DNA from: Victivallis vadensis
GTDB lineage: Bacteria; Verrucomicrobiota; Lentisphaeria; Victivallales; Victivallaceae
Assembly: GCA_040393525.1 (NCBI GenBank)
Contig: JBEBTY010000012.1
Coordinates: forward strand, 15,400 to 79,399
Reading direction: 5' to 3'
DNA length: 64,000 nt
Of this stretch, positions 1,408 through 58,355 are shown one piece after another (positions within the stretch are counted from its first letter, which is position 1; each line of letters opens with the position of its first letter). A model generated the notes under the pieces. It was not told the origin of the DNA. It made no database searches and was given only the letters and a program-made list of their open reading frames with translations. A program made the translations under genes and the position numbers.

Positions 1408-3093
1408 ATGTCATTTGAGCAGGAACGGAACGACAATATGAATCGCGACACGGTTTTGCAGCAGGCCATGGATTTCATGGAGAAGGAAACGCAATTTCAC
1501 CTCGGGTTTCTTCCGACCGAACAGTCGAATCCGTTGTCGCGGACACTGGAGGCGGATTTCAAGACCTCCGGCGCGCGCGGTGTCGCGACGCTTCAGCGGG
1601 TGGATCGCGAGGTGTTGCCGATGGCGGAACGGATGTTGAATTCCGAATCCTTCCAGCGCATGGTGGAGATTGGCGGAAGAACCGTGCGCGGCGGGGGGAA
1701 GATCGTCTGCTCCGGCTGCGGTGCTACCGGGCGCCTGAGTATTTTACTGGAGTGCATGTGGCGCAAGTATTGCACGGAGAACCCGGCTGCGGCGAAGTAT
1801 GCCGATTCGCTGGAGAGTATTATGACCGGCGGCGATTTTGCGCTGATTCGTTCCGTGGAATTTTTCGAGGATTACGCTGTTTTCGGCCGTCGCCAGGTAC
1901 GGGACGCTGGAATGGGGGAGGGCGATATGCTGATCGCCATCACCGAAGGCGGAGAAACCTCTTCCGTGCTCGGCACGGCGGAGGAGGCGCTGTCGTGCGG
2001 TGCGGCGGTGTTTCTGCTCTTCAACAATCCGGCGGAGTTACTGTGTGAGCATTTGGAGCGCTCCCGGTCGGTGATCCGCAATCCGAATTGCTGCGTGTTG
2101 GATCTCTCCTGCGGCCCCATGGCACTGGCCGGGTCGACCCGAATGCAGGCGACGACTTCGGAGCAACTGGTGGCGGGAGCGGCGTTGGAGTCGATTCTCC
2201 GTAATCTCTTCGATGAAGAGCATCCGTCCGTTGCGACGGAGTTCCATATGCTTCTCGATGCGATGGAACGTCCTGAAATCGTGAGCATGATTGCCGATTA
2301 CATCGAGTTTGAGGCCGCGGTTTACCGGAGCGGCGGAAAGATCACCTATTTTGCCGATGACTTTCTGTTGGATATCTTTACAGATACCACCGAGCGTTCC
2401 CCCACCTTTATGCTTCCGCCGTTCCGTCGCCGCGACGATCACAGCACGCCGGAGCCATGGGCGTTTGTCAAGAATCCCCGGTTCGACACTCCGGAAACGT
2501 GGCGGCGTGAGATGTGTCGCAATGTTCGCTGTCTGGAATGGACGGCCGACGATTATCGCGCGATGAATGCGCCGGAGAAGGTGATCTTGCAGCCTCCTGC
2601 GATTCGTGCCGCGGATCTGCTGGCCATTCCGGTTGGCAACGAAGACATGCCGGAGCGCTATGCTTCCGCATCGGACACCGCCGTTCTGGTTTCGTTCGGT
2701 CGCAACGAAGCGCTGGAACGTGCGTTTGAAGCCCGGTTCGCCGGGAAATTCCAGACCGTAAAACGGATCGATCTGGAACTCCTGCTTCCCTTCGTTCCGA
2801 AGAATTCCGTGTTGGAACTGATGCGGCACATGGCCATCAAGCTCTTCTGGAACACCGTTTCCACCGGGTGCATGACCCGCCTGGGACGGGTGACCGGGAA
2901 CTGGATGAGCTGGGTCAACGTCAGCAACAAAAAGTTGATGGATCGCGGAATCCGGCTGGTTTCTGAAATCGGCGGCGTGGACTACCGGACGGCCTGCATC
3001 GCTGTGTTTGAAGCGGTCGAAGCATTGAAAACACGCCCGGAGGATCGCCGCTCCCCCGTACAATATGCGTTGGAATCCTTGCGCAACCGGTGA
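1408..3093 (+). CDS. MurQ / glucokinase-regulatory-protein-like SIS-domain protein (561 aa)
   Basis: Motifs LPTEQSNP, GCGATGRLS, GSTRMQATT, NTVST and SNKKLMDRGIRLV match MurQ/GKRP. It is about twice the length of canonical MurQ. Confidence 0.7.
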   Translation: MSFEQERNDNMNRDTVLQQAMDFMEKETQFHLGFLPTEQSNPLSRTLEADFKTSGARGVATLQRVDREVLPMAERMLNSESFQRMVEIGGRTVRGGGKIVCSGCGATGRLSILLECMWRKYCTENPAAAKYADSLESIMTGGDFALIRSVEFFEDYAVFGRRQVRDAGMGEGDMLIAITEGGETSSVLGTAEEALSCGAAVFLLFNNPAELLCEHLERSRSVIRNPNCCVLDLSCGPMALAGSTRMQATTSEQLVAGAALESILRNLFDEEHPSVATEFHMLLDAMERPEIVSMIADYIEFEAAVYRSGGKITYFADDFLLDIFTDTTERSPTFMLPPFRRRDDHSTPEPWAFVKNPRFDTPETWRREMCRNVRCLEWTADDYRAMNAPEKVILQPPAIRAADLLAIPVGNEDMPERYASASDTAVLVSFGRNEALERAFEARFAGKFQTVKRIDLELLLPFVPKNSVLELMRHMAIKLFWNTVSTGCMTRLGRVTGNWMSWVNVSNKKLMDRGIRLVSEIGGVDYRTACIAVFEAVEALKTRPEDRRSPVQYALESLRNR

Positions 3094-3102
3094 AGAAGAC
3101 AG

Positions 3103-3142
3103 AAAAACGGGGAGTGACTTGTTGTCAACCCCCCGTTTTTTT
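3103..3142. terminator. Bidirectional intrinsic terminator
   Basis: AAAAACGGGG...CCCCGTTTTTTTT hairpin between convergent genes. Confidence 0.75.
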
Positions 3143-3154
3143 TGCGATCAGAGA

Positions 3155-3526
3155 TCAGATATCCACCGTCTTGCCGCCTTGCTTCTTCTCGATGCGGTAT
3201 TGCGTGTAGAATGGGTTCCCCCAGCCGACCAGCTTGCCGTCTTCAAATACGACCGGCATACACTCGTCTTCTGTGTTCAACCCATCCATCCAGACCGTCT
3301 GGGTGAAGTAGTACCAGACGTCGGGTGTGGCAAACGTGGCGCCTGCCAACGGCTGTCCCATTACTTCGAGCACTTCGTTCTTGGTCATTGCGACCCTGAG
3401 TTTTTTCGAGTTCTCGATGTTGTAGGCCGCTTCATTCCACGGCAGGAGCGTGCAACCGGCCGAAAGGCCGACCAACAGCGCCATCGCCGTGCCGAAAAAA
3501 AATCGACGGAAAACAGTCATATCCAC
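3155..3526 (-). CDS. DUF3192 / BamE-SmpA-like lipoprotein
   Basis: Lipobox LSAGC; motifs MTKNEVLEVMGQP and DGLNTEDECMPVVFEDGKLVGWG. Confidence 0.7.
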   Translation of the reverse strand: MDMTVFRRFFFGTAMALLVGLSAGCTLLPWNEAAYNIENSKKLRVAMTKNEVLEVMGQPLAGATFATPDVWYYFTQTVWMDGLNTEDECMPVVFEDGKLVGWGNPFYTQYRIEKKQGGKTVDI

Positions 3527-3538
3527 TCCGTGCCGCGC

Positions 3539-3700
3539 TTAATCCAGCGGTGAAAATTCGCTTTTGCCTGCTCCGCATTCCGGGCAGAGCCAATCTTCCG
3601 GAATATCTTCAAAGGCGGTTCCGGCCGCAACGCCATTGTCGGGGTCGCCAACGGCGGGATCATAGATATAACCGCAAACATCACATACATACTTTTTCAT
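3539..3700 (-). CDS. rub: Rubredoxin (53 aa, below the ORF-track cutoff)
   Basis: Hand translation [53 protein letters not shown]; two CxxCG motifs. Confidence 0.97.
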
Positions 3701-3729
3701 TTTTGCTCTCCTCTTTGTTCGGATTTGTT

Positions 3730-4941
3730 TTACTTGACCCGCTCCAGAAGGAGCTTGCCCAGTTTCTCGCCGACTTCCGACATGCGTTTCATGTCTTCCG
3801 CCGTAGGCATGTACTTTATCTGAAACAGTTCATTCGGCTGTTCCATCCCCATCGCTTCCAGTTCGGCGGCGATCTGTTTGGCGCCTTCGCCGCTCCAGCC
3901 GTAGGAGCCGAACGCGAAGCCGATTTTGTTTTTCGGGCGAAGCCCTTTTACATAGCAGATGGCGTCGGCCATCTGCGGAAACATCTGGTTATTCATCGTC
4001 GGTGCTCCGAACGCAACCAGGCCGCAGTCGATGATCTCGGTCATCACTTCGCTGCGATCGCTTACCGTGAGATCCAATACTTTGACTTCGACGCCGGTGG
4101 AGCGGATGCCGTCCATCAGCGCGTTTGCCAAGCGCTCCGTCGAATGCCACATGGTCGAATAAACGATTACCGCACGCGGTTTCGGCAACTGCTCGGAGCA
4201 TTCGCGATAGAGGTCGATGATCCATTTGATATCTTCCGGCCGCCGCCAAATCGGACCGTGGTCGGGGGCGACGATTTCGATATCGAGATTGAGATCGGGC
4301 AGGGAGGTCAACAGCTCTTTCACCTTCGGAGAAAGGTGATTGAGAATGTTGGCATAGTATTTACGCGCTTCATGATCCAGCACATACGGCGCATATTCCT
4401 CGCCGAAACGCTGGCTGCCCGCCAAGTGCATGCCGAACGCATCCTGCGAGAACAGGAGCTTCTCCGTATCGAGGTAAGTGAACATGCTGTCCGGCCAATG
4501 AAGCATCTTGGTTTCGACAAACGCAAGGTTGCTTTTTCCGGTACAGATCGACTCCCCGGTTTTGACTTCCGTGATGTCCAGTTCTGGATAATAGGCGGCC
4601 AGGGTTTTTTTGCCGAGCGGGGAGGCGAACACTTTTTCCGGTTTGAGCGCGGCGATGGTCGCCGGGAGCCCGCCGGAGTGATCCGGTTCCGCATGGTTTG
4701 AAACAATATAATCAACCTTGGTCAAATCGCCGATCACTGAACGGATGCGGGCAAAAAGCTCTTCGACGAACGGTCCTTTGACCGAGTCGATCAGCGTGAT
4801 TTTTTCATCGATAACCAGAAACGCGTTGTACGTGGAACCGCGTCCGGTCTCGTAACCGTGAAAGTTACGGATGTTCCAATCGATCGCACCGACCCAGTAG
4901 ACTTTGTCGGTGACTTTAACTGCCTTGTAATATTCTTCCAT
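3730..4941 (-). CDS. fprA: Flavodiiron protein (FprA family O2/NO reductase)
   Basis: Metallo-beta-lactamase motifs [27 protein letters not shown]; C-terminal flavodoxin ([18 protein letters not shown]). Confidence 0.93.
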
Positions 4942-45333: not shown

Positions 45334-48233
45334 AACGCTGTTTCCTTTTCATCTGCCTGCTGGCTGTATTGCCGTTTCTTTCCGGTGCGGCGAAGAACGC
45401 CTGGGATATCTGGCGCGAAGGGTATGAAACCTACCAGAAGGGCGAAGCGGCCCGCGATCGCGGCGAATACTCCAAGGCGGCCGAGTTATTTCAAAAGTCC
45501 CTCGGCCTTTACCGCGAAATCCAGCGGCAGCGTCCGGATTGGGATCAGAGCATTATTCAGAAGCGGATCGCAGATAGTGAGCGAGAACTCAGCAGTGTCC
45601 GCCAGTTGCTGGGGATTGCCGACGTCCCCGTCGATGATGCGCCGAAGCCGACGCCTCAGGGGGCTGCGCCGGCCGGCGTCGATTTTGTGGATCAGGAGAG
45701 CCGAAAACGCGAGCTGGAGATCTACCGGAAGAAGATCGTCGATTTGACCGTGGAAAATGATCAGCTGCGCAAAGAGGCCGAACGCCTTAAGACCAACGAA
45801 GTCGATGCGCTGAAACTCCTGAAAGAGCAACGTGTTCTGCGCGAAAACCTCACTCTCCTTGAGCAGCAGAACCGGACGCTGGAAAAACAGTTGCAGGAGC
45901 CGGAAACCCGGGTAGAGGCGCTCCATAAGCAGATGGTGGAGGGGCAGCTTGCGTTTGACTTGCTCTCCAAGCGTTTTCAACTTGCCGAGGCCAGAGCGCA
46001 GAAGCTGGACGGTGAAATCACCGAGCTGAATCTGCAGAAAACCAAGGCCGAAACCGAACTGAAAACTTCCGCGACCGAAGTCACTCGTTTGAGTCGTGAA
46101 CTCGAAGAGTTGCGTAATTTCCGCGATGCCGCAGTCAAGCAACGTACCGCGCAGGAGGCCGCCGTGAAAGAGGCGGAGTTGAAGCTGAAGAACCTGACGA
46201 CGAAGCTGGCGACGCAGACCGAAGAAGTTGTGGTCTTGAATCGTCGTCTTGCCGCCGCAGCGGTTGCCGGGGGCGGAACAGATAAACTGAATGCGGAACT
46301 GTTGACGGAAAATGCAAAGTTCAAAGCCGAAGCCGCTGCCGCCCGGAAAGCGCTGGACGCCTCGGCGGAAGAGCTGCTGGCGTTGCAGAACAAGCACCGT
46401 GCCGCACAGCTTGAAGTGGTTCAGCAGAAAGAAGTTTTGCTGCGTATTGAAACACTCCGCCTCGCACTGGAAAAAGGAAACGCCACATTGACCAAAGAAT
46501 TGGAGCGCGAACGCGCCTCCGCCGAGCTGTCGAGCGTGGAGCTGAAGACGTTGCGTGAGCGTAACGCGAAGTTGGAAGAAGATATGAAGAGCTGGAGCGA
46601 ACGTTGCGCCCGGCTGGAGAAACAACTGAAGACGCAGAATACCGCCGCGACAGCAGGAATCGCCCAGAGTGAAGAGGAGAATCTGAAGCAGGCGAAAGAG
46701 CTGAAGTCACTGAAGGATCAGTTGAAAACGCAGGATGAAGAGCTGAAAGTTCTGACGACGCAAAGCGCTTCTCGTGGCAAAGCGTTGGAAGCCGCCAATG
46801 CGGAGCTGGCGCAAAGTCAGGCTGCGTTGCTTTTAGCCGAAGACAAGTTGAAAAAAACTCAGGAAACAGAAACCGGCCTGGCGGAAGCGCAGGCGCGTCT
46901 TGCCAAGTTGGAACCGGAGTTGGAGCGTTTTCGGAACGACGTTCCCGCCATGCGGAAAGAACTTGCCGCCGGTCAACAGGTGGCGGAGGAGTTGAAGGTT
47001 GCTCAAACCTCGCTGGACACCGCGAAAAAGCGTCTGGCGGAGTTGGAGAAACTTTCCAGCCGATTGGTGGAGGAGCAGAAAAACAACCAGGCGCTTTCTG
47101 AAAAGAACCGAGCGTTGGCGGAAACGTTGGCCAAATTGCAGGAGGATTCCGCTAAGCCGCGTCCGTCGGCGCCGCAGCCGACGGTTCCGGAGCCGCTTTT
47201 GCCGGGAGCCCCTGCGGACACTACTCCATTGACCGACCGGAAACCGGCGGATCTGATTGCCGCGGGGCGCAAAGAAGAGGCCGCAGAGCGCTGGGATGTG
47301 GCGATCTGGAACTACGATGCGGCATTGGCGCAGGAGCCGGAGAACAAGGAAGCCGCCATTCGGCTGGGAGCGCTGGTGCTTCGGCGCGGTGAATTCGCCC
47401 GTGCAGAAGTGCTTCTGTCCAAGGCTGCTCGGCGTAGTCCGAACGATGCGGTTCTTGCGGCATTGTACGCGGAAGCGTTGACTGGCCTTGACAAATACGG
47501 CAACGCCTTGTCGGTTTTGGAAAAGCCGTTGTCATTGAATCCGAACGATTTTCGCCTTCGCCTTGTTCAGGCGAAGGCATTGGCGGGCAGCGGTCGGAAA
47601 GATGCGGCAATGCAGGGGTTTCAAACCGCAGCGAAACTCAACCCGTCCGCTCCGGAGCCAAACCTTGAAATGGCTCGTCTGGTACTTGCGGACGGAAAGG
47701 AAAAAGAGGCAGCAGATTATTACCGTCAGGCTCGCGACCTGGGAGCCAAGCCGGATTCGGAGCTGGAACCGAAGCTGGGGAAACTACTGGCCGAACACCG
47801 GGAACTGGCGGAATTCATGTCCACTGCCGCTGCGGAAGCAGCGAGGAATGAAGACTGGACGAGTGCTTTGTGGTACTATCGGCAGCTGAATGAAATCGAT
47901 CGGGGCAACGCCCGGATTCCGCTCCGTATGGCCTATAGCCATATTCAGACGGAAAATTATGCGCAGGCGCTGGAAATTTTGACGCTGAATCCACCGTCGA
48001 CGGAAGGTGATATTTTACGGATCGTTACCTTCTTGAAACAGAACGACTTCGCTGCTGCTCGCGCTGCGGCGGAAGACGCACTGAAGCGCAACGGTGGCAA
48101 ACCGCTCGAATGGAGCGACGATTGGCCGGAATTGAAAGCTACTTTTGTCGAGCTGCGCAAAAACCCTGAGCTGAACCAGTCCGTTGCCGGAATGGAGTGC
48201 GAAAAGGTATTCGGGAAGCTGTTTTTGGAGTAA
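45330..48233 (+). CDS. Secreted TPR / long coiled-coil / TPR protein
   Basis: Signal peptide, N-terminal TPR, long heptad-rich region, Pro-rich linker, C-terminal TPRs; ATGA overlap with hflX. Confidence 0.8.
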   Translation: MKRCFLFICLLAVLPFLSGAAKNAWDIWREGYETYQKGEAARDRGEYSKAAELFQKSLGLYREIQRQRPDWDQSIIQKRIADSERELSSVRQLLGIADVPVDDAPKPTPQGAAPAGVDFVDQESRKRELEIYRKKIVDLTVENDQLRKEAERLKTNEVDALKLLKEQRVLRENLTLLEQQNRTLEKQLQEPETRVEALHKQMVEGQLAFDLLSKRFQLAEARAQKLDGEITELNLQKTKAETELKTSATEVTRLSRELEELRNFRDAAVKQRTAQEAAVKEAELKLKNLTTKLATQTEEVVVLNRRLAAAAVAGGGTDKLNAELLTENAKFKAEAAAARKALDASAEELLALQNKHRAAQLEVVQQKEVLLRIETLRLALEKGNATLTKELERERASAELSSVELKTLRERNAKLEEDMKSWSERCARLEKQLKTQNTAATAGIAQSEEENLKQAKELKSLKDQLKTQDEELKVLTTQSASRGKALEAANAELAQSQAALLLAEDKLKKTQETETGLAEAQARLAKLEPELERFRNDVPAMRKELAAGQQVAEELKVAQTSLDTAKKRLAELEKLSSRLVEEQKNNQALSEKNRALAETLAKLQEDSAKPRPSAPQPTVPEPLLPGAPADTTPLTDRKPADLIAAGRKEEAAERWDVAIWNYDAALAQEPENKEAAIRLGALVLRRGEFARAEVLLSKAARRSPNDAVLAALYAEALTGLDKYGNALSVLEKPLSLNPNDFRLRLVQAKALAGSGRKDAAMQGFQTAAKLNPSAPEPNLEMARLVLADGKEKEAADYYRQARDLGAKPDSELEPKLGKLLAEHRELAEFMSTAAAEAARNEDWTSALWYYRQLNEIDRGNARIPLRMAYSHIQTENYAQALEILTLNPPSTEGDILRIVTFLKQNDFAAARAAAEDALKRNGGKPLEWSDDWPELKATFVELRKNPELNQSVAGMECEKVFGKLFLE

Positions 48234-48301
48234 AAAAGCTGAAAAAACCATGAGGCGGATTTGCTTTTCTGTAAATCCGCGGTATAGTAATATTATCACG
48301 A

Positions 48302-48375
48302 GGCGTGGTAGCCAAGAGGTTAGGCAGCGGTCTGCAAAATCGTTTAGACCGGTTCGATTCCGGTCCACGCCTCCA
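48302..48375 (+). tRNA. tRNA-Cys (GCA)
   Basis: Acceptor stem GGCGTGG/CCACGCC, anticodon loop CTGCAAA, GGTTCGATTCC T-arm, U discriminator, encoded CCA; upstream TTGCTT-16-TATAGT. Confidence 0.96.
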
Positions 48376-48393
48376 TTTTTTTGCCCTGATTTT
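48359..48393 (+). repeat. attL core (tRNA-Cys 3' end plus 18 bp)
   Basis: TCCGGTCCACGCCTCCA-T7-GCCCTGATTTT, repeated at 56558-56593. Confidence 0.92.
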
Positions 48394-48445
48394 CGACTCT
48401 TCTCCCCTCAACTGCTTGCACATACATCAGGCGGCGCAATGCTTG

Positions 48446-48488
48446 TGAGGCACAAACTGTGACACAACTGTGACACAGGTGAGGCACA
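48446..48488 (+). repeat. Left arm-type repeat array, 4 x TGWGRCACA
   Basis: Units start at 48446, 48458, 48469 and 48480. Confidence 0.85.
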
Positions 48489-48509
48489 ATCGCACACGCC
48501 ACCGGAAAG

Positions 48510-50408
48510 GTGACTGTGAAGCAAGAAAACCATCTCTGGAACCGCAACGGCATCCTCTACTTCCGCATGAGGGTACCCGCTTCTCTGCGAAGACACATTC
48601 AAAGCAAAGAAATTCGCTGCTCATTGCGGGGAATGGACTTGCAAACTGCGGTAAGGAAAACTAAATTACTGGAGAGTGAACTGGCAAAGCTCTTCAAACA
48701 GGCATTAAACGGATTGGTGGACATGGCGATATTGCATCCTCTGGTGAGGCAGATTTGCAACAACTTCCTTTTCTTTGACGGGCAAAGCCAGCTTCGGCAA
48801 TTCCGAATGAGCTTTTCTCTACAGCAGTGTAATGATGTAGAGGAATGGGTCCGTTACTGGCTCAGGAATGAAATTACTCAGTCTCCCATCGCCCAGATGT
48901 TTGCCTTCTATGCCGCTCAACGCGGCGAGGCTGTCGATATCAATGACCCGAATAACGATGCCCTGATTCTGGACTTCTACAAGGCATACCTTGAAGTTCT
49001 GCGTATCCAGAAGGAACGAATGAACGGCAATTTGCGAAACGGTTATGATGATGCAACGCCGGAGGGACGGTTTTCACAGATTCTCTCCCCTGATGATACT
49101 TCTCCCGATTTATTGCAGGCCCCGGAATTTGATGTAAGAGAAATTCTTTCCATGTGTGCCGTCCCGGAAGAGAAAAAATGTCCTCCTACATGGGAGAATC
49201 TGCAACATCATTCCCGGAAATCGCCAAAAGAAGAAAAGCCCTCCATTTCGTCCTCTCTTCCGGTCGAAGCTCCTGTTCAAATCACTCCGTCTTCCGGTAT
49301 AACTCTGGTGGAAGCGGTACGGAAATATATCCGTGACAGACAGGTCAAAAAGAACTGGAGCGATAAATTGACCACCATGAAAACCGGATATCTCAACGTT
49401 CTATTGGAACACTTCGGGGCAGACAAAGATGTTGCTTTGATTTCCAATGAAGACATGCTGGACCTTTATGAAAACGTCCTCAAAAAATATCCGTGGAACA
49501 GAAATAAACTTTATCCGGGAAAAAGTCTTGCCGAAATCATGCCGTTATCCCCCAGATACATCGACGCGGGAACAGTGCAGAACTATATCGGGGCTATCAG
49601 TACATTTTTCAGATGGTGTCAAAAAACAGGCCGTTATATGATTGCGAATCCGGCGGATGGCTTTTGCGAGGGTAGGCAAGAACGGGATGATGAGCAGAGA
49701 CTGCCGTTTGCGACCAAGGAATTGCAAAGTATTTTTCAAGAAGTCGCAGCAATGCCGAATCGTCCTTATTTCAGTAGAAAAATGTATCCGGCCCGCTACT
49801 GGGTATCGCTCATTGCTCTGTTTCAGGGAATGCGGATAAATGAAATCTGTCAGCTCTTTCTGGACAACATTTTTTCAGTCAATGGAATTCCCTGCATTGA
49901 AATCACAGCCAATGAAGAACGTAAACAGAAAGTAAAAAACAAATACAGCCGCCGGATAATCCCGATTCATTCGACTCTACTGGAACTGGGTTTTCTGGAC
50001 TATCATGATTCGCTATGGAGCGCAGAAAACAGATTGAATGACCAGCTTTTCCCCATGCTGACAGCCAGTGACGAGGGCTATAGCAGGAAGATGAACTCAT
50101 TTAACGATGTCATCCATAAACTGATTCCAGACGAAAAAAGAAAAACCTTTCATAGCTTTCGGCATAATTTTGACACGGTATTGATGAATCTCCCGGATGC
50201 GAACCCATTCCTGATTGCCTGTCTGGACGGGCATGAACGGACAGGAACGCTTGCCGGGCGCTATGCCAAAGGTCGGATTCCTGATATGCAAGGCATGCTT
50301 GAAAGGCTTGTGTACGATTTTGATATCTTCGAGTGTTTGGGCAAAACTCCGCTTGACGACAAAATCATTGCTACGCATATAGCCCGGCTTCCTGCCAGAG
50401 AGTTCTAA
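48510..50408 (+). CDS. int: Tyrosine recombinase/integrase with DUF6538-like N-terminus
   Basis: LWNRNGILYFRMRVPASLR...EIRCSL; catalytic GMRINEICQL, KNKYSRRIIPIH, HSFRH, LDGH, RY all present. Confidence 0.93.
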   Translation: MTVKQENHLWNRNGILYFRMRVPASLRRHIQSKEIRCSLRGMDLQTAVRKTKLLESELAKLFKQALNGLVDMAILHPLVRQICNNFLFFDGQSQLRQFRMSFSLQQCNDVEEWVRYWLRNEITQSPIAQMFAFYAAQRGEAVDINDPNNDALILDFYKAYLEVLRIQKERMNGNLRNGYDDATPEGRFSQILSPDDTSPDLLQAPEFDVREILSMCAVPEEKKCPPTWENLQHHSRKSPKEEKPSISSSLPVEAPVQITPSSGITLVEAVRKYIRDRQVKKNWSDKLTTMKTGYLNVLLEHFGADKDVALISNEDMLDLYENVLKKYPWNRNKLYPGKSLAEIMPLSPRYIDAGTVQNYIGAISTFFRWCQKTGRYMIANPADGFCEGRQERDDEQRLPFATKELQSIFQEVAAMPNRPYFSRKMYPARYWVSLIALFQGMRINEICQLFLDNIFSVNGIPCIEITANEERKQKVKNKYSRRIIPIHSTLLELGFLDYHDSLWSAENRLNDQLFPMLTASDEGYSRKMNSFNDVIHKLIPDEKRKTFHSFRHNFDTVLMNLPDANPFLIACLDGHERTGTLAGRYAKGRIPDMQGMLERLVYDFDIFECLGKTPLDDKIIATHIARLPAREF

Positions 50409-50665
50409 TAAACTATAATTTCCCCGATTCAACCGGGCCGGGGAATTTATTGAAAAATCTTCATTTGATAAAATCAAAGAAGCGATTATATTAATTCTCG
50501 AGTTAGCGGCATTGAATGTCGATGCCGTAAAATTAGTTGCAGAATAAAGAAGTGACAGGCGATGTTTCATCGCCGCTACAGTTCTCAGAACTCCACAGGG
50601 AAACCTGATTTTCTCTTTATTCTCTTAGCCTAGGCACATTGTGCCTTCATGCAAGGAGAATGAAA

Positions 50666-50926
50666 ATGAGAGAAAACCAAACCTCTCCCGCCCCGAACCC
50701 GCAATCATTGACCGACCGGCAATTGATGATGGAATTGCTTTCCATGATTCCGGCAGACCGGCTTGAGAAGCTGAAGCTGGTGGAACTCAGAGCGGACAAA
50801 AAATTCCGGCGCACGATTCAGGTTCGAATCAAAGTGTTGAGCAAAGAATCTGACTTGGACCCGCTCCGGAAAAAAGTTCAGATGTGTAACGCCCGTTTTG
50901 CGGCTCATGAAATTTACTTCAGCTAG
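50666..50926 (+). CDS. Small hypothetical protein, antisense to the GHKL gene tail
   Basis: AAGGAG 7 nt before ATG at 50666; 86 aa; composition more GC-rich than the GHKL body. Confidence 0.4.
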   Translation: MRENQTSPAPNPQSLTDRQLMMELLSMIPADRLEKLKLVELRADKKFRRTIQVRIKVLSKESDLDPLRKKVQMCNARFAAHEIYFS

Positions 50927-52912
50927 ATATTTATCCAGAAGGTTATTTTTTTGTTCTTCTTGAATTTTTATCTCAAGCCCTCGTTTTTGTTCTGTCAATT
51001 TGAAACGAGCTTCTCGAATAATACGGTTCCATGTTCGACAGTAGACGCGATAATTACCGTGTAGATAATCCTGCAAAATTTGCTCTTGAGGGTTATCTCC
51101 TTGATAGAGAGCTTCCATATCGGCTGTAATATCTGAAGAAACCAGCCAATATTCCCATTTATTATTTTCGGATATTTCCACTCCAGTAGTTTTTGCAATA
51201 CCGCGATAAATATCCATTGCCTGTTTTTGCAAACTTACTCCTATCGGCACATTAGGAGCCTTAAGCTCGACGATTAAATTAAAATTCCGCTTCCCTATGG
51301 AATCGGGAATCGTTTTCCACATATATAGGTCAGGAATTTTTTTGAGGTATGAGTCTACTTTTTTAGCATCTTTCTCTATGCCCTTCTCTATTTCTTCTAT
51401 TTCCGAAACAGACAATTCTTGAATCTTCAAATTGCTCTTTAACACATTTGTCAGACTTTGGTCACTATTGCTCAGGTTGTAATCAAATTTATCGCCAAAA
51501 ATCCAAGTCTCCTGCTCAACAATCTTATGTAATTGAGTTCGCTCTTTGAGTTTTTTCTTGTAAAAATCCTTATGGACCAATGAATCCAATACATCAAGGA
51601 ACGTTTCTCGTCGTAAAATTTCGTTATAATGTTGTATCAACGCAGGAAGAGGAGTGCTCTTACAGATATTTTGAAAGTCTGTTGCCTCTTCGGGAGACAG
51701 TTCCAAGACTTCGCTGAGATTGTCGGCTATAGAAGCATCTTTCTCAATGAATTTTCTGAGTAACTTGAATAGTAAAATCAATGAGCTTTTTTTACTGCTT
51801 AAAACCCTTTCCTCGTGTTCAAGAATGGAGAACGCGCATAAATCAAACAAGTTCCGCTCTGCGGCTTCAACTTCATTTTTCGGCTCAACTGCAAAAGGAT
51901 AATATTCTGCTTCTGAAAATATTTTGAATCGCTCCTTAGAACGCTTTTTCCGCATTTCATATAGAAAGTGTAACAGTCTCTCCCGATAAGCTTTTTTAAT
52001 AGGAGTTGCGGCATCCATAAAATCTGAGGAATATTCATCATATGCAGAGAAAAAATCAGAAAGTAAAAATACAGTATGATATGGCAAGGAATCAGCAGCA
52101 TTTACGCCAGAAGCAAAGGCTCCTTTATAATTAAAGCTTTTATCAAACAGAAATGTATGCTTATGTCTTTTGAAGTTATAAGCAGGTTTCCAGACAATGA
52201 AATGATAGTCAAAGATATATTCTGTCTCATTAAAATTCAGTACGAATTTCCCTTTGTTTTCACCGTCAATGAAATCGTCAGGATTTAAAGCACTTCCGTT
52301 AATATTTAATGTAAAATCAGGGTCACTCTTAATGTAGAGGCCAACTAACTCGGCGAGCCGGAAAGCAAATCTATCAGAATTTTTTAACTTCTGGGCATTA
52401 AGAGAAATATTGCTGATGGTAACTTCTGTGCCTGTCGAATTTCTTTTTGACTCAACTTCATCTCCCCAAGGAAATGATTCCGGTTCTGAAAAGCAGGATT
52501 CAATGGAGTATTCGTATAATTTCCCATCGCTATTTTTATAGCATGTACTCCATTTTATATCAGTTCCCAATGAAAGGTATTTGAAGCGTCCAATTCCTTG
52601 GCGTCCTTGGTAAGGCCGCCCATCGGGACGCTTTTTGTCTTTTTTCCACGACTTATTATATTGCTTAAAATACTCTTCTACATGTGCAAAAGGTATTCCC
52701 GTCCCATTATCTTTTATGACTATTGACGATATTTCGTGAACTGAAAAATCGCCATTATCCAATCCACATTTTTCGTATTCAAAGTTAATATCTACTCGTG
52801 TTGCCGAGGAATCGATGGAATTGAAGATGATTTGGGCTAATGCATCATAAACATCACAGGTTGCGTGCTTTTGCAATGCTTCCTTTGTTATTTCTACCTT
52901 GATAGGTTTCAT
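50705..52912 (-). CDS. GHKL (HSP90/MORC-like) ATPase fused to a PD-(D/E)xK-like nuclease
   Basis: DALAQIIFNSIDS, DNGTGI, GRQGIGRF; C-terminal ETWIFG, IPDLYM...LIVELKAP. ATG at 52912 follows GGAG, 1 bp after the res stop. Markedly AT-rich. Confidence 0.8.
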   Translation of the reverse strand: MKPIKVEITKEALQKHATCDVYDALAQIIFNSIDSSATRVDINFEYEKCGLDNGDFSVHEISSIVIKDNGTGIPFAHVEEYFKQYNKSWKKDKKRPDGRPYQGRQGIGRFKYLSLGTDIKWSTCYKNSDGKLYEYSIESCFSEPESFPWGDEVESKRNSTGTEVTISNISLNAQKLKNSDRFAFRLAELVGLYIKSDPDFTLNINGSALNPDDFIDGENKGKFVLNFNETEYIFDYHFIVWKPAYNFKRHKHTFLFDKSFNYKGAFASGVNAADSLPYHTVFLLSDFFSAYDEYSSDFMDAATPIKKAYRERLLHFLYEMRKKRSKERFKIFSEAEYYPFAVEPKNEVEAAERNLFDLCAFSILEHEERVLSSKKSSLILLFKLLRKFIEKDASIADNLSEVLELSPEEATDFQNICKSTPLPALIQHYNEILRRETFLDVLDSLVHKDFYKKKLKERTQLHKIVEQETWIFGDKFDYNLSNSDQSLTNVLKSNLKIQELSVSEIEEIEKGIEKDAKKVDSYLKKIPDLYMWKTIPDSIGKRNFNLIVELKAPNVPIGVSLQKQAMDIYRGIAKTTGVEISENNKWEYWLVSSDITADMEALYQGDNPQEQILQDYLHGNYRVYCRTWNRIIREARFKLTEQKRGLEIKIQEEQKNNLLDKYLAEVNFMSRKTGVTHLNFFPERVQVRFFAQHFDSNLNRAPEFFVRSEFHQLQLLKPVCRNHGKQFHHQLPVGQ

Positions 52913-52913
52913 T

Positions 52914-55118
52914 TTATTCTCCAATAACGCTTTTTAGCAAATTAAAACATGGACCATTTGTCATCACAAATAAGCATCGCCCATTGCTGTTCTTTGCCCA
53001 AAATTCACCGACGATTCGCTTTTCTTTGGAGTCGTCGTTGCTGTAGCGGTCTGCACCTTTATATTCAATAACCAATATACGGCCATCTTTGAGTTTTGCC
53101 ACAAAGTCAGGATAGAATTTGCGGTTGTGCAACTGAAGAAAAAAGGAGTCGTGTTCGCGTTGGTCGAGGTTGCGGACCCAGTATTCGACTTCCGGCATCT
53201 GGTCGATGAAGATGGCACATTGCTCCTCTTCGCCGCCGTCCTTTCCGTCGAAACTCCCGACTATCGGGTAATAGTGTTTCTTGAATTTATAAGAGCCTTG
53301 ATATTGGCTGTTGACCGGATAGTCAGACGGATATTGGAAGCAGCGTTCGGGAGTCACAATCGCCTTGAATTCGCCCTCCGGCAACAGTAGTTGCTGAAAT
53401 GCGGCTTTTCGCGCCAGTTGGCGTGCGAAATTGATTTTATCTTCAATTGCCGTCTTCAACTTGTATTTATCCACCACCATTTGCGCCAACGGAATATTTC
53501 GGTTGGTTTGCATATCCAGAATCAGTCTGGTTAGAAATGCGGTCATCTCCTGTGCGGTAATGTCACGGTACTGGATACGTTTACCCAGCCAATAAACGAG
53601 GTCGGAAACTTCCCAGTTATGTGCGGCATTTACATCCCAATACGCGCTGTCCTGCTGAACCCGTTCAACGAACTCCAAGACGATTTTGCCGTTTTCCGCG
53701 TCGATAGTACCGCGTTGGATTTCATCGATGCTCGGGCTGTATTCACTAGCGCTGAAGATTGCAGGGAGATTGCTCAAGCTCCAATCGCATTCCTCCAGAA
53801 TGTCTTCGCAGGACTCAAACAACTCCCCCTGTTGAAACGAAAGGAGCGGCACGGAGAATTCAAGTCGTCTTTCCGCCGGTGACGGGTTGGGAATGTGGAT
53901 ATGGTTGCTTTGCAGAAACGCCTTTTCGATATTGGCGGCATCTTTGGGGCAATGGCGCTTCAGTATTTCCCGGTCTTTCACGGTCATCGGCTCGTGGAAT
54001 ATCAGGGCTCCGTCATAGGGATTGAATTCCGGTTTGCTTTCCAGAAGTTCGCCCTCAGCGAGATATGGAATCTCCGAACGGTCGGTCAGCATCAGAACCA
54101 CTTCAGTATCGGGAAGCCCGCCCGTCGGGTATTGGCCCGCAAACAAATCGTCGCTGTCATCATAGGTCGGAACCTGCTGAATCAACCGTTCCACTTCTTG
54201 CCGGTCAAAGCCATTCTGCGTGAGAGCATCTTTGAGGTTCTGTGCTATCTCGTTGAAGGAAGCTGTGGCGAATGCGTAAGACTGATTGAGTTCCGGGAAA
54301 ATTTTGCGTTTGGCTCTGGGCATACGTAGAATTCGCCCGAGAATCTGTTCCACCTGAATTTTGGAATGACTTTCGACAATGGAACACAAGACGTAGGCAA
54401 AAGAACAGTCCCATCCCTCTTTCAACTTCTGCTGGGTGATAATATAGCGGACCGGGCAGTCGCCCTTGAACAAATCCAGCTTGTTGATTTCGTCGATGGG
54501 GCCGGTTGCGATTTTCACCTCGTCTTCATTTAGCCGGAAGTCTTCAACCAGAACTACCTTCAGGCGTTCCGCATGAAGGGTATCGACCAGCTCGCTTTTC
54601 CTCTCCGCCTGAAGCAGCACAATCGGACGGATATATTCGCCGGTTTTCTGCTGTTCTAGCATCGCCAGTCGTTCCAATTGATTGCGCCGATTGATAGCGT
54701 CCTGCAAGAGCTCACGCCAATCAGGACGGCCTTCCACCACAATTGGGAGCTTAATCATCTCTTCGGCTTTCAACTCCTGCGCCGACACACTATAAAGAAT
54801 GTTCGAAGGATTGACTTGTACATCCGGCGTGGCGGTAAATTCCATGATGCAACTGGGGCTGAAGTTCGCCAAGGTGTCGAAGGTGAGGCGGGTTCTGGCG
54901 TTGTGCGCCTCATCAACAATGACGATGGGACGCCGCATAGCAATCACGTTAGCCAGCGACTCCACCGGTTTGCCGGTATTGGGATTCAGTTCCAACTGGC
55001 CGGGCCACGCTTGAGCAGAAGAATCGAAAAAACTCATCAACGAACCATCCTGCTTATAAACCCGCAATCCGGTCGTATCGTCCCGCTTGAAGCTCTGCAT
55101 GGTCGAAACAATCACGAT
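52914..55118 (-). pseudogene. res: Type III restriction endonuclease Res subunit, 5'-truncated
   Basis: IVDEAHNA, EFTATP, QKLKEGWDC, QILGRILR, YPDFVAKLKDGRILVIEYKG. No Walker A; in-frame stop at 55131-55133 upstream; no RBS and no mod gene. Confidence 0.82.
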
Positions 55119-56150
55119 AAATCCAGAGCTTTAGCGGCATTGCTGACTCCGGCTCTGGTCGCTGGCGGGATTTTGAATGCAAGGTCTCCGATGATGTTGC
55201 TGGAAGCGGATAAAAGCCAGTCGGGAAAAGGTTTCTTTTCCAAAATTCTTGGAGCCATTTACAATGAGACGCCGGTAACGGTAGCTCAGCGTGAACGCGG
55301 TACCGGAGGATTGGATGAGAACTTTGATGCGGCGGTTTGCAGTGGTCGTCAGATTATCGTGCTGGACAACCTGCGCGGTAAGCTGAACAGCCCGCAAATC
55401 GAAGCCTTTCTGACCTCGGAACGACATATGGCCAGAATGCCTTACTCTCCTCAGGTTGAAGTGGAGCCCGGACGTTATTTCATCATGGCGACCTCGAATA
55501 ACTTCGAGTTGACGGTTGACATGGCGAATCGGGCCTGCATCATCCGCATTTTCAAGCAATCGAAGAATTATCAGTTCCAATCTTTCCCCGAAGGAGATAT
55601 CCTTGAGCATATCAAGGCAAATCAACCTCGCTATCTGGGGGCGGTTTTCGCCGTCATCCGGGAATGGGTCAGATTGGAAAGCCAGAGAATGCCCCGTGCC
55701 GCGCACGATTTTCGTGATTGGTGCCGGGCGCTCGATTGGATGGTCCAGAATATCCTCCATGGCGCTCCTTTAATGGATGGGCATCGGGAGATTCAGATGG
55801 TAACGGTGCATCCTGAAGTCAATTGGCTGAAGGGGCTCTGTAATATTATCCGTGACCTCAATGAACTGGATAGTCCGATGACGGCTCTCGACCTTGCGGA
55901 GCGTTGTGAACTGGCCGAAGTGGAGCTTCCCGGAGCGCAGGGAGCTCTGTGGCAGGATTTGGACGAACGGGGACATACGCAAGTCTGTTCGCAAATCGGA
56001 AGGCGTCTCGCGAATCTGTATAAGAAGCTGGGAGACGACCGCGAGGTTTGCATCGGCAACTTCTCGGTCACACGGGAAAACCGAAGGATGACCTATGCCT
56101 CCGGTAAATCCGAGAATGCCATGTGCTACCGGTTTAATCCCGTAGCATAA
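55116..56150 (+). pseudogene. Primase-associated P-loop NTPase/helicase domain, 5'-truncated
   Basis: EADKSQSGKG (Walker A-like), VLDNLRG (Walker B-like), ATSNN, DMANRACII. The first ~145 aa of the tracked ORF (54678..) are only the antisense of res. Confidence 0.65.
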
Positions 56151-56194
56151 TCTCTCCAGCCGTTGCCTGATTGATTCCGATTGACGTCAGCCCG

Positions 56195-56222
56195 GCCCTC
56201 TTCGGAGGGCTTTTTCTTTTTA
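56195..56222 (+). terminator. Intrinsic terminator with UUCG loop
   Basis: GCCCTC-TTCG-GAGGGC followed by TTTTTCTTTT. Confidence 0.8.
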
Positions 56223-56374
56223 TAGCAAACAATAGAGCTCACTCTAATGCAAGTCCGCAGAGATTACGCTCCCGCCTTGGAAGCGCAAGAGCTCTTCAGC
56301 ATTTATAGATAAGTTTTGGCACTTTTACATATAAATAGGTAATGGAGCAGAGCAGTAATTTCCATTGAAATAAT

Positions 56375-56402
56375 TTGACATGAACCGATTGTATGCTATT
56401 TT
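56375..56402 (+). promoter_or_regulatory. Outward-facing sigma70-like promoter near attR
   Basis: TTGACA-16-TATTTT with an extended TG. Confidence 0.4.
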
Positions 56403-56425
56403 ATAAATTAATGGAGGCGTTGCGC

Positions 56426-56460
56426 TGAGGCACAAAGTGTGACACAACTGTGACACAGGT
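56426..56460 (+). repeat. Right arm-type repeat array, 3 x TGWGRCACA
   Basis: 34 of 35 bp identical to 48446-48480, same orientation. Confidence 0.85.
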
Positions 56461-56557
56461 TTTGTTGCCAAAGTGTTTGTTTTGAATAGAATTAACTTTG
56501 CAAACAGTTGATTTGCAAGAGTTGACAAGGAAAAAAATTTGGAAGGTTCAAAACGTC

Positions 56558-56593
56558 TCCGGTCCACGCCTCCATTTTTTTTGCCCTGATTTT
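56558..56593 (+). repeat. attR core
   Basis: TCCGGTCCACGCCTCCA-T8-GCCCTGATTTT; one more T than attL. Confidence 0.92.
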
Positions 56594-56619
56594 GCTCCCT
56601 TTTTCTATCTTCTACAGGT

Positions 56620-57531
56620 TTATTCTATTTCGGTGGATTGCAAGTGCCGGGGTGGGTAACCGAAAAATTTCTTGAATTCCGTCGAAAAATTATGCTGGTT
56701 ATCATAGCCGACTTTGGCGGCGACTTCTTTAACCAACAGCCCTCCTTGGCGCAACATCGCGTCGGCTTGGCGCATTCGCAACAAGGTTAAATAGTGATGA
56801 GGCGTCACATCTAAATACTCTCGGAACAAGCGGTTCAGCCTGGACTCACTGATTCCGGCTCCAGTGGCGATGTCGGAGATCAGCAGCTTTTGCGAATAGC
56901 TGCGTCCGATGATTTCCAAAGCGGCGGCCAACGGCGCAGGTTGGTGTTGTTCGGATTCCGGCGACACGAGATATTGGATGATTTCAAAGCAGAGATTGGA
57001 TACCTGGCGACGGGCGATGGGAGCAAATGTCTCTTGCAGCGCGTTGCCCAGATGTGAAAACAACCCGGTGAGAAGATCAAGCGCCTTCAAGCTGATGAAT
57101 GTTCCTTGAGCGAGTTTACTGGATTCCAGAATCCCCGCCAGAGCGTATCCTTCTATCTGAATCCCGATTTTATTGCAACGTAGCGGCGTTGTGAGTTCAT
57201 GATCGATTCCCGGAGGTAGGAGCATTACATCGCCTGCCTCCATGATCCGGTATTCGGAGCCGCACCGAACCCATTGCTCACCGGAGCAGATCACTCCGAT
57301 ACTCAGGAAAAGAGGGTTCTCCCGATGCAGATAGTACCCTTTCCAGCTGCGGCTGTGGCAGAGTAGGCGGCAAGAGAGCATCATGTCGTTTCTGGCATCC
57401 GCCGGGACTTGGTATTGGCGGCAGTATTCATTTCGGACAATGCCGAGGCGATAGCCGTTTCCCTGTTCCTCCGTCGGCAGAGAAGAAAGACGCTGAAAGA
57501 GTTGTTGTGAAGATTCATCTAAATATTTCAT
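56620..57531 (-). CDS. AraC-family transcriptional regulator
   Basis: Cupin domain plus SESRLNRLFR...KEVAAKVGYDNQHNFSTEFKK. Start placed at MKYLDE. Confidence 0.9.
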   Translation of the reverse strand: MKYLDESSQQLFQRLSSLPTEEQGNGYRLGIVRNEYCRQYQVPADARNDMMLSCRLLCHSRSWKGYYLHRENPLFLSIGVICSGEQWVRCGSEYRIMEAGDVMLLPPGIDHELTTPLRCNKIGIQIEGYALAGILESSKLAQGTFISLKALDLLTGLFSHLGNALQETFAPIARRQVSNLCFEIIQYLVSPESEQHQPAPLAAALEIIGRSYSQKLLISDIATGAGISESRLNRLFREYLDVTPHHYLTLLRMRQADAMLRQGGLLVKEVAAKVGYDNQHNFSTEFKKFFGYPPRHLQSTEIE

Positions 57532-57674: not shown

Positions 57675-58355
57675 ATGAAGAAGAAGTTTACGTTGATTGA
57701 ATTGTTGGTGGTAATCGCAATCATTGCGATTCTTGCCGGGATGTTGCTTCCCGCACTGAATCAGGCACGGTCGCGAGCCAGTGCTATTTCGTGTGTCAAC
57801 AATATCAAGCAGCTCTCTACGATGACACGGATGTATCTGGATGACAACAACGATATGATGTTCTTCTACGGAAACAACAAGACATGGGCAATGGTTTTGG
57901 CGAATAAGGAAGGCGGTGGCGCATTGACCAGCAATGATAAGATTTATTCTTGTCCGACATTGCCGGGGCCGAATCCGAATGACATCAATTTTTACACCTA
58001 CGGACTTGCCAATCCTGCGCCTGCCGCCAAGTTGTTGCCGAGCCGGTATTATTCTTTGAGCGGAGCTTATACAGGGTTGAATCTCAAGGGAGTCCAGAAT
58101 GCTTCATCGCTTCCGTTAATCGGTGATGCAGGACGGAATCTGAATGAAAATGCCGGATGGAACTTCAAGAACATTGCCGGCGACAATGCCTTTGCGCTTA
58201 CTCACGGCAAACAGGGAAGCCTTGGATTTGCCGATGGTCATGCGGCGCTTTCCACCGAACACGATCTTCGTGATGCCTTGGTAAAAACCTGGGACGATGA
58301 TACATTGCAAGTGTATTATCTGATCCCCGGTTCGGCAGCTCGTCTGGTGCAGTAA
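57675..58355 (+). CDS. Prepilin-type N-terminal cleavage/methylation protein with H-X9-DG motif
   Basis: [32 protein letters not shown]...CVNNIKQL; [13 protein letters not shown]. Confidence 0.92.

Follow-up and report, generated by a model that had tools for sequence, protein, structure and literature searches.

A tRNA-Cys integrative island of Victivallis vadensis that is probably a decaying mosaic with a complete integrase and truncated cargo genes

The closest described systems to the locus reported here are islands of the lambda/P4/Tn916 type, in which the 3′ end of a tRNA gene is duplicated as the att core and repeated arm-type motifs lie inside both ends, and the P4-like satellites and phage-inducible chromosomal islands (PICI), which are laid out as int, alpA, primase or replicase, and cargo. 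Cryptic or degraded tRNA-linked islands, which keep int and att and lose their interior genes, form a general class. We analyzed a 64,000-nucleotide stretch of the Victivallis vadensis assembly GCA_040393525.1 (contig JBEBTY010000012.1, positions 15,400 to 79,399; hereafter the window, in whose own numbering all positions are given), which carries an ~8.2-kb insert in the 3′ end of a tRNA-Cys gene. A preliminary description had presented this insert as a compact island of the satellite or integrative mobilizable type, with intact recombination machinery and defence-type cargo, still excisable and replication-defective. In our judgment, it is likely to be a decaying mosaic member of a tRNA-targeting integrative island family of the Lentisphaerota (Victivallales-like bacteria). 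Like cryptic tRNA-linked islands, it keeps its integrase (Int) and both att sites, deletions appear to have cut its interior genes, and its composition is atypical. Unlike the usual cryptic islands, the missing 5′ parts of its res and ATPase genes are visible in public contigs that are identical up to the junction where the two fragments meet (J2, below).

The insert is bracketed by a 35/36-nt direct repeat, comprising an attL core of 35 nt (48359–48393, forward strand; direct repeats D7/D15) and an attR core of 36 nt (56558–56593, forward strand), both recognized from direct repeats and the sequence itself. The core reads TCCGGTCCACGCCTCCA-T7-GCCCTGATTTT at attL and is the same with T8 at attR, and it consists of the last 17 nt of the tRNA-Cys gene and the next 18 nt. 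The 24-nt att core was present in exactly two copies in the window against zero expected, with none in 100 shuffles. The tRNA-Cys (GCA) gene (48302–48375, forward strand) is complete (ARAGORN; Rfam tRNA, 58.3 bits), and an Rfam search at a relaxed E-value over 47500–57500 returned nothing beyond it. The locus had been described as a discrete tRNA-Cys integrative island with AT-rich cargo and an att duplication differing by one T, and on these points it was described correctly: the 3′ end of the tRNA is duplicated at both boundaries, int adjoins the tRNA, and GC content drops from 0.55–0.60 in the flanks to 0.44–0.50 over int and 0.34–0.38 at 51000–53000. The flanks carry ordinary host genes, the left flank encoding a 967-aa TPR protein and the right one an AraC-family regulator.

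The length of the T-run is polymorphic (48376–48382 and 56575–56582 in the window); at attL it is T7 in the window and T8 in a ~96% allele found in runs X13, X24, and X26. Because the run varies between alleles, we read the one-base difference between attL and attR as homopolymer slippage and not as a crossover marker. In related species (L028, L039, and one contig of run X10), tRNA-Cys is followed by TTTTTTTGCCCTGATT and then by unrelated sequence, which supports a native-site core extending past the tRNA. Separately, on a JGI metagenome contig of a related species (Ga0209373_10045781; L024:316–1238; TPR neighbor 59% identical), the tRNA-Cys 3′ end and T-run are duplicated exactly over 40 nt on either side of only 857 bp, which looks like a still more reduced remnant of the element at the same site.

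The int gene (48510–50408, forward strand) encodes a full-length tyrosine integrase of 632 aa, as indicated by Pfam, PHROG, a family alignment, and an AlphaFold model compared by Foldseek. It contains DUF6538 (residues 8–64) and Phage_integrase (PF00589, residues 432–586; 32.2 bits vs. a Pfam cut-off of 27.1). All of the catalytic residues are in place, in agreement with the preliminary description: in a 12-member alignment (A1), R442, K476, H548, R551, and Y585 never vary and H575 reaches at least 90% conservation, which gives the tyrosine recombinase pattern R...K...HxxR...H/W...Y. In the AlphaFold model (mean pLDDT 75), a two-domain fold (core-binding and catalytic) was seen, and the C-terminal ~360 residues matched Brujita, Tn1549, lambda Int, and XerH (Foldseek E 5e-7 to 1e-5). 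The N-terminus was modelled as three strands and a helix (residues 9–66), a module that we take to resemble arm-binding domains, and residues 173–258 of the long linker were disordered or poorly predicted. The R-K-H-R-H-Y set and the fold matches to lambda, Tn1549, and Brujita Int are shared with lambda/P4/Tn916-type integrases, whereas its greater length, its DUF6538 N-terminus, a helical or disordered insert of ~200 aa, the lack of an Xis/AlpA partner in the window copy, and the small size of its family set the window Int apart. Only 12 matches were found in 5.8 billion proteins, 567–654 aa long except for one 467-aa outlier, and nearly all of these relatives carry both DUF6538 and Phage_integrase. 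A PDB sequence search with Int gave nothing significant, and DUF6538 was unmentioned in the literature searched. As judged by a dN/dS of 0.07 against the 92%-identical copy in locus L022, int is under strong purifying selection, a ratio that reflects the history of the lineage and not the time since truncation of the island.

Inside both ends of the island lies a second repeat (D2; 48446–48480 and 56426–56460, 34/35 identical), which belongs to arrays built of 11-bp units of the form nTGnGnCACAA. The array on the int side of the core comprises four ~11-bp repeats, GTGAGGCACAA, CTGTGACACAA, CTGTGACACAG, and again GTGAGGCACAA (48445–48489, forward strand), and the far arm holds three, CTGAGGCACAA, GTGTGACACAA, and CTGTGACACAG (56425–56458, forward strand). 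The word CTGTGACACA has six matches in the window vs. 1.8 expected, all of them in the two end arrays. Equivalent arrays are found between core and int in L022 and in the 60%-identical L004, and relatives at tRNA-Met genes have repeated motifs of their own at the position of the window's left array. These arrays are likely arm-type Int sites, an assignment drawn from the repeat architecture. Int, the two cores, and the two arm arrays are intact; Int probably retains the ability to recombine the element that encodes it, and we are evenly divided on whether excision would be detectable. Two sigma-70-like promoter matches (56375–56402 and 56465–56492, forward strand) were noted in the AT-rich arm, directed to attR; they are consensus matches only, and on the circular form they would read over attP into int.

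Defence-type cargo had been claimed for the interior, and this may hold for one near-complete gene of the GHKL family; the cargo is otherwise mostly wreckage. On the reverse strand, 52914–55115 encodes a 5′-truncated Res subunit of a type III restriction-modification (R-M) system, recognized by PADLOC (REase_III) and by alignment to an 883-aa homolog, P0014. The PADLOC profile matched with 354 bits over positions 210–875 of 898, leaving positions 1–209 unmatched, and the alignment to P0014 (82% identity) starts at residue 149 of that homolog and extends to its C-terminus, residues 1–148 being gone. The Walker A motif of P0014 (PTGGGKT, residues 64–70) falls in the missing part and is absent from the window Res. 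As in EcoP15I-like type III R-M systems, the fragment retains DEAH, the later helicase motifs, and the C-terminal PD-ExK region; unlike in those systems, helicase motif I and Mod are missing, and the full set of superfamily 2 (SF2) helicase motifs that would accompany the nuclease is incomplete. The closest intact relative, L013, has a gene for a 381-aa N6/N4 methyltransferase after res, whereas in the window the GHKL gene comes immediately after the truncated gene (res′). A tblastn search with the L013 methyltransferase found no mod gene or remnant in the window, and there was no methyltransferase domain among the open reading frames (ORFs) of the island. PADLOC, run on all island proteins, reported REase_III for the Res fragment only. 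Because Res is without Walker A and there is no Mod, type III restriction function would be dead, and the window Res cannot be a functioning type III system.

Directly beyond the truncated end of res′ lie the C-terminal 344 codons of a gene for a ~540-aa VapE/DUF5906-like P-loop ATPase (55116–56150, forward strand), identified from homologs, PHROG, and the gene call in L001; its longest ATG-started ORF is 55194–56150. The homologs P0133–P0137 are 538–564 aa long and 69–94% identical, and the window copy is short of ~196 N-terminal residues. The fragment retains Walker A (SQSGKG) and Walker B (IIVLDN), as read from its sequence. The preliminary description had called this a primase-associated remnant. 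The fragment is real, but its link to primases consists of sub-threshold Pfam matches (DUF5906, 24–25 bits vs. a cut-off of 27.6; VapE-like, 15–18 vs. 25) and a weak PHROG match to ‘DNA polymerase/primase’. A PHROG match to phrog_10537 (E 1e-10) is to a family of unknown function, and no primase domain was recognizable in the full-length relatives. The remnant had no homology to the replication genes of the integrase relatives (the 482-aa protein of L004 and the Prim-Pol of L008), the full-length ATPase had no match in IMG/VR, and a PDB sequence search gave nothing significant. DNA homology to L015 spans 55115 to the terminator at 56220, where an intrinsic terminator-like hairpin (56194–56221, forward strand) lies 3′ of the gene, and RNA contigs end at ~56195. 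As with restriction, replication or helicase function would appear to be dead.

Elsewhere, the full-length ATPase gene (L015:121–6088, L017:6134–11274, and L042:5239–11629) was observed just downstream of a divergent and variable defence-type cassette, encoding a 1282-aa protein, AIPR, or a methyltransferase with a kinase/ORC-CDC6-like protein. This position looks like the cargo hotspot of a larger element that also bears a resolvase and an Amidoligase_2 gene. Given this layout, a parent with res-GHKL divergent upstream of the ATPase gene, and hence a simple deletion at J2, is plausible, although unproven.

The two fragments are fused head to head at J2 (55115/55116), which was placed from homology limits and contigs: the stretch homologous to L013 reaches 55116 and the one homologous to L015 begins at 55115, with microhomology of at most 1–2 nt. 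Both missing 5′ parts could be traced. On the res side, a contig from the sludge-metagenome run X8 continues past 55115 and encodes SPSDVDNCTC, a 9/10 match to residues 139–148 of P0014 (SPGDVDNCTC). On the ATPase side, contigs from runs X12, X13, X14, and X18, 100% identical over at most 1081 nt, go upstream of 55115 with VADFHYQSEG, the sequence of P0134 before the breakpoint; their sources are two whole-organism RNA runs, one digester metatranscriptome, and one DNA metagenome (X13). Since these contigs match the window identically wherever they align and then extend into the 5′ sequence that it lacks, the losses at the res and ATPase 5′ ends would be recent.

A second junction, J1 (50907/50908), marks the end of the island backbone and was placed by blastn against L022 and by the loose ends of contigs. 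Identity between L022 and the window is 92.4% over 48349–50907 and stops exactly there; past that point L022 encodes a 492-aa protein (phrog_4756), an SNase-like lipoprotein, and a 427-aa protein, and the window is without all three. From 50908 rightward, the window is a 100% match to short contigs of run X8, which differ left of 50908. The 492-aa backbone protein of L022 (reverse strand, 2537–4015) is 42% identical to the 482-aa protein of L004 (L004:13125–14573); both are phrog_4756 proteins with no Pfam domain, and their ELDFDSFH and PVHDSAIV segments recall what we take to be motifs A and C of family A polymerases. The window has lost this backbone gene, which L022 and L004 retain, and its ATPase gene is truncated; the suggestion that the island is replication-defective is therefore a reasonable one.

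Between J1 and res′ lies a reverse-strand gene (50705–52924) for a GHKL ATPase with a C-terminal PD-ExK nuclease motif, recognized by HATPase_c_3 (51 bits, with the ATP-binding motifs in place) and by homolog alignment. An exhaustive search found 1254 relatives, typically 650–690 aa long, the best of which (671 aa, 64% identity) aligns to residues 5–673. The native part of the window protein spans ~50908–52912 (~671 aa), and its last 67 codons (50705–50907) read antisense through a small gene on the other side of J1; this foreign tail begins after residue 671–672, and its frame has a dN/dS of 0.86. Among 46 sequences, N35, D72, G74, G76, and G107–G112 are conserved, the last conserved position is L662, before the junction, and the C-terminal D532...E553-x-K555 is 100% conserved and marks a putative nuclease domain. 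On its sequence, this is the only near-whole cargo gene of the island. It may still be made, though the 5′ region of its operon is lost and its tail is foreign.

Iyer, Abhiman and Aravind (2008; PMC2292703) linked paraMORC3 ATPases to type III-like helicase-nucleases and also recorded stand-alone paraMORC3 genes. The window protein is paraMORC3-like in its N-terminal GHKL domain, its C-terminal D...ExK motif, and its operon with a type III-like SF2 helicase-nuclease, a likeness to the pattern described in that paper. The native start of the GHKL gene (M5) lies 1 nt past the res′ stop, and the two genes therefore would have formed one operon. The 64% homolog adjoins an HNH-type gene and not Res, and there was no homology between the GHKL protein and the 829-aa product of the gene after res-mod in L013. 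Apart from its 67-aa foreign tail, the window protein differs from typical paraMORC3 proteins in motif I: the subclade nearest to it (P0253, P0254, and P0256–P0258; window 52822–52834, residues 31–35) has QxxxN, not ExxxN. Gln in place of the motif I Glu suggests that proteins of this branch would bind ATP with slow or no hydrolysis.

Relatives of the integrase adjoin tRNA-Cys (L004, L022) or tRNA-Met (L008, L009). Besides int, the islands of L004, L008, and L009 carry HTH_17 (Xis/AlpA-type), a gene of the replication type (Prim-Pol in L008), and varied defence-like cargo, among it kinases together with an ECF sigma factor, HepT/MNT, SNase, reverse transcriptase, DEAD helicase, and T5orf172. 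This layout is like that of P4-like satellites and PICI, and of it the window keeps int and the ATPase fragment. Unlike those elements, the window is without alpA or an intact replicase and has no match in phage or viral collections, and neither it nor the relatives examined show capsid-redirection, packaging, or helper-interference genes. No HTH_17 gene was found in the window by Pfam or tblastn, and no other recognizable directionality factor was seen. The int gene, att cores, and arm arrays are intact; however, to speak of intact recombination machinery, as the preliminary description did, was an overstatement because the HTH_17 gene that stands next to int in three relatives is absent here.

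The position of HTH_17 in the relatives is occupied in the window by a small conserved gene of 88 aa (50660–50926, forward strand). Against L022, its dN/dS is 0.17 in its own frame vs. 0.86 in the antisense frame, and its last 9 native codons have been swapped for 5 at J1. It had no Pfam or PHROG match, and its single-sequence model was poor (pLDDT 59). We regard it as a candidate regulator or directionality factor, nothing more. Two antisense ORFs, 50097–50570 (157 aa) and 55131–55760 (209 aa), were treated as spurious because they have no family matches and overlap real genes.

Two studies contributed five insect or insect-gut metagenome runs with the exact window sequence (among them SRR23622343 and SRR26434396), and an identical 12.9-kb stretch with both J1 and J2 emerged from independent assemblies, on contigs of 14.8, 24.9, and 55.1 kb with an even depth of 10–39x. 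L001, L002, and L012, considered as variant copies since their gene calls differed, were rejected as such, being 100% identical to the window. Mobility was visible at the level of the family. The ~96% allele of the tRNA-attL-int end has, in X13, a host part (48186–48358) identical to the window, and in pig-gut run X24 the sequence that precedes the tRNA of the same int-end allele differs; words nearly identical to int were also found in wastewater, digester, and pig- and chicken-gut metagenomes, outside the runs that match the window's right flank. Because the allele and words occur in differing flanks and samples, the element family would have moved between backgrounds, which gives no direct word on the truncated copy. 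A whole-island megablast search against plasmid and phage collections gave no match.

A DUF6538-type tyrosine integrase inserted the element at the tRNA-Cys 3′ end, regenerating the tRNA and leaving a 35/36-nt core at each end. Most of the interior was then lost through two non-homologous joins: the J1 join removed the backbone genes after the small gene, including the 492-aa phrog_4756-type protein, and the J2 join the 5′ ends of the divergent res and VapE-like ATPase genes together with anything between them. If the island were excised, the attB joint would read from the tRNA 3′ end as ...GGTTCGATTCCGGTCCACGCCTCCA-T7/8-GCCCTGATTTT and then GCTCCCTTTTTCTATC, and the attP joint as ...AAAACGTCTCCGGTCCACGCCTCCA-T7/8-GCCCTGATTTT and then CGACTCTTCTCC. 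Since the island has no recognizable directionality factor and no replication or transfer genes, its spread would rely on other elements.

Several points weigh against the reading of a decaying mosaic. The junctions could stem from two deletions in a larger parent or from a single replacement that brought in 4.2 kb of foreign DNA, and the arm sites are assigned from repeat architecture only. The GHKL gene could be a working stand-alone defence gene and the 88-aa gene could be an unrecognized directionality factor, either of which would leave the island less dead. No attB or attP joints were seen in the contigs of X1, X2, X5, and X6; the metagenome runs were examined as assembler contigs, which drop rare variants and are not expected to show such joints. 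The search of related genomes for empty sites that the preliminary description had proposed gave no same-species empty site, either in a genome-contig scan with the TPR neighbor, which returned only a 52% Victivallis metagenome-assembled genome without tRNA-Cys at that position, or in a metagenome scan with the att core (20 loci).

A reading built on the preliminary description, in which a compact, active satellite or integrative mobilizable element can still excise and supplies its host with a functional defence system, now seems very unlikely. The intact Int, att cores, and arm repeats would suit it, as would the defence-type cargo of the integrase relatives (reverse transcriptase, HepT/MNT, kinases, T5orf172, and AIPR) and a GHKL-nuclease ORF that is open over its native length. 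It is contradicted by a Res that has lost residues 1–148 with Walker A and has no Mod, by an ATPase short of its ~196 N-terminal residues, and by the lack of an HTH_17/Xis-type gene. The space of the island is taken up by five ORFs, without a gene for a relaxase, for packaging, or for capsid redirection among them: searches of the ORFs gave no relaxase domain, as an integrative mobilizable element would have, nor any Pfam or PHROG match to helper-exploitation genes (capsid size redirection, small terminase), as a satellite would have, and PADLOC recognizes the Res fragment alone. We give still less credence, next to none, to the assembly chimera that the preliminary description had allowed for, in which unrelated fragments were mis-joined at repeats. 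Each module is indeed identical, over the matching parts of contigs, to DNA found separately in other metagenomes, but the same 12.9 kb with both junctions was recovered by two studies at even depth, and neither J1 nor J2 lies at a repeat; the independent identical assemblies rule a chimera out for practical purposes.

Two further readings lie closer to that of a decaying mosaic. The island could be minimal, with one real cargo gene, the stand-alone paraMORC3-like GHKL-nuclease, acting as a defence or toxin gene through which the element pays its way; we consider this rather unlikely. The protein is whole to within a few residues of the conserved core of its family (L662, with the junction after 671–672), N35, DxGxG, and D532/E553/K555 are all there, stand-alone paraMORC3 genes have been described (PMC2292703), and the 64% homolog stands beside an HNH-type gene instead of Res. 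Set against this are its co-transcription with res in an operon whose upstream region is deleted at J2, the 67-aa non-native tail, and the Gln that replaces the catalytic Glu of motif I in its subclade. Alternatively, the island could be a fixed fossil, immobile since its directionality factor and accessory functions were lost with the interior, with an int ORF merely not yet degraded. This is possible, if short of probable: the HTH_17 gene of the family is absent, all five insect-metagenome runs show the identical occupied site, and no contig skips the island. However, int shows strong purifying selection against the 92% relative (again over lineage history and not the post-truncation period), the conserved small gene still stands beside it, both arm arrays are intact, and contigs cannot reveal rare excision events. 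A broader proposal, which we hold to be doubtful, is that DUF6538 integrases and tandem 11-bp arrays define an undescribed tRNA-Cys/tRNA-Met island family of the Lentisphaerota that serves as a set of defence-gene exchange platforms. The window would then be a still-moving ‘int + att’ skeleton, the 88-aa gene a new directionality factor, and the res-GHKL and ATPase modules, identical over matching sludge, pig-gut, digester, and insect contigs, would be being shuffled now.

Outside the island, ~90 nt at 57675–57766, at the 5′ end of a 226-aa ORF, are matched by several unrelated contigs of X1, X2, and X5, with higher word depth. The stretch probably encodes an N-terminal signal (prepilin-type N-methylation motif) that recurs in many genes of this genome.

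Judged from their sequences, the defence and replication genes of the tRNA-Cys island are broken fragments, and the locus is an ordinary decaying island and not a working defence satellite. The finding has value as a correction: a defence island would be called in error here by any scan that looked for ‘integrase + Res + GHKL + primase-like gene at a tRNA’, since of the three cargo genes a single one is near-complete. To our knowledge, there is almost no mobile-element biology on record for the Lentisphaerota, and the locus adds a small uncharacterized integrase family (DUF6538 type, 567–654 aa) that targets tRNA-Cys and tRNA-Met and has readable arm-site arrays. The contigs that carry the missing 5′ parts, together with the divergence of L022 at J1, show how islands of this family are whittled down by non-homologous deletions.

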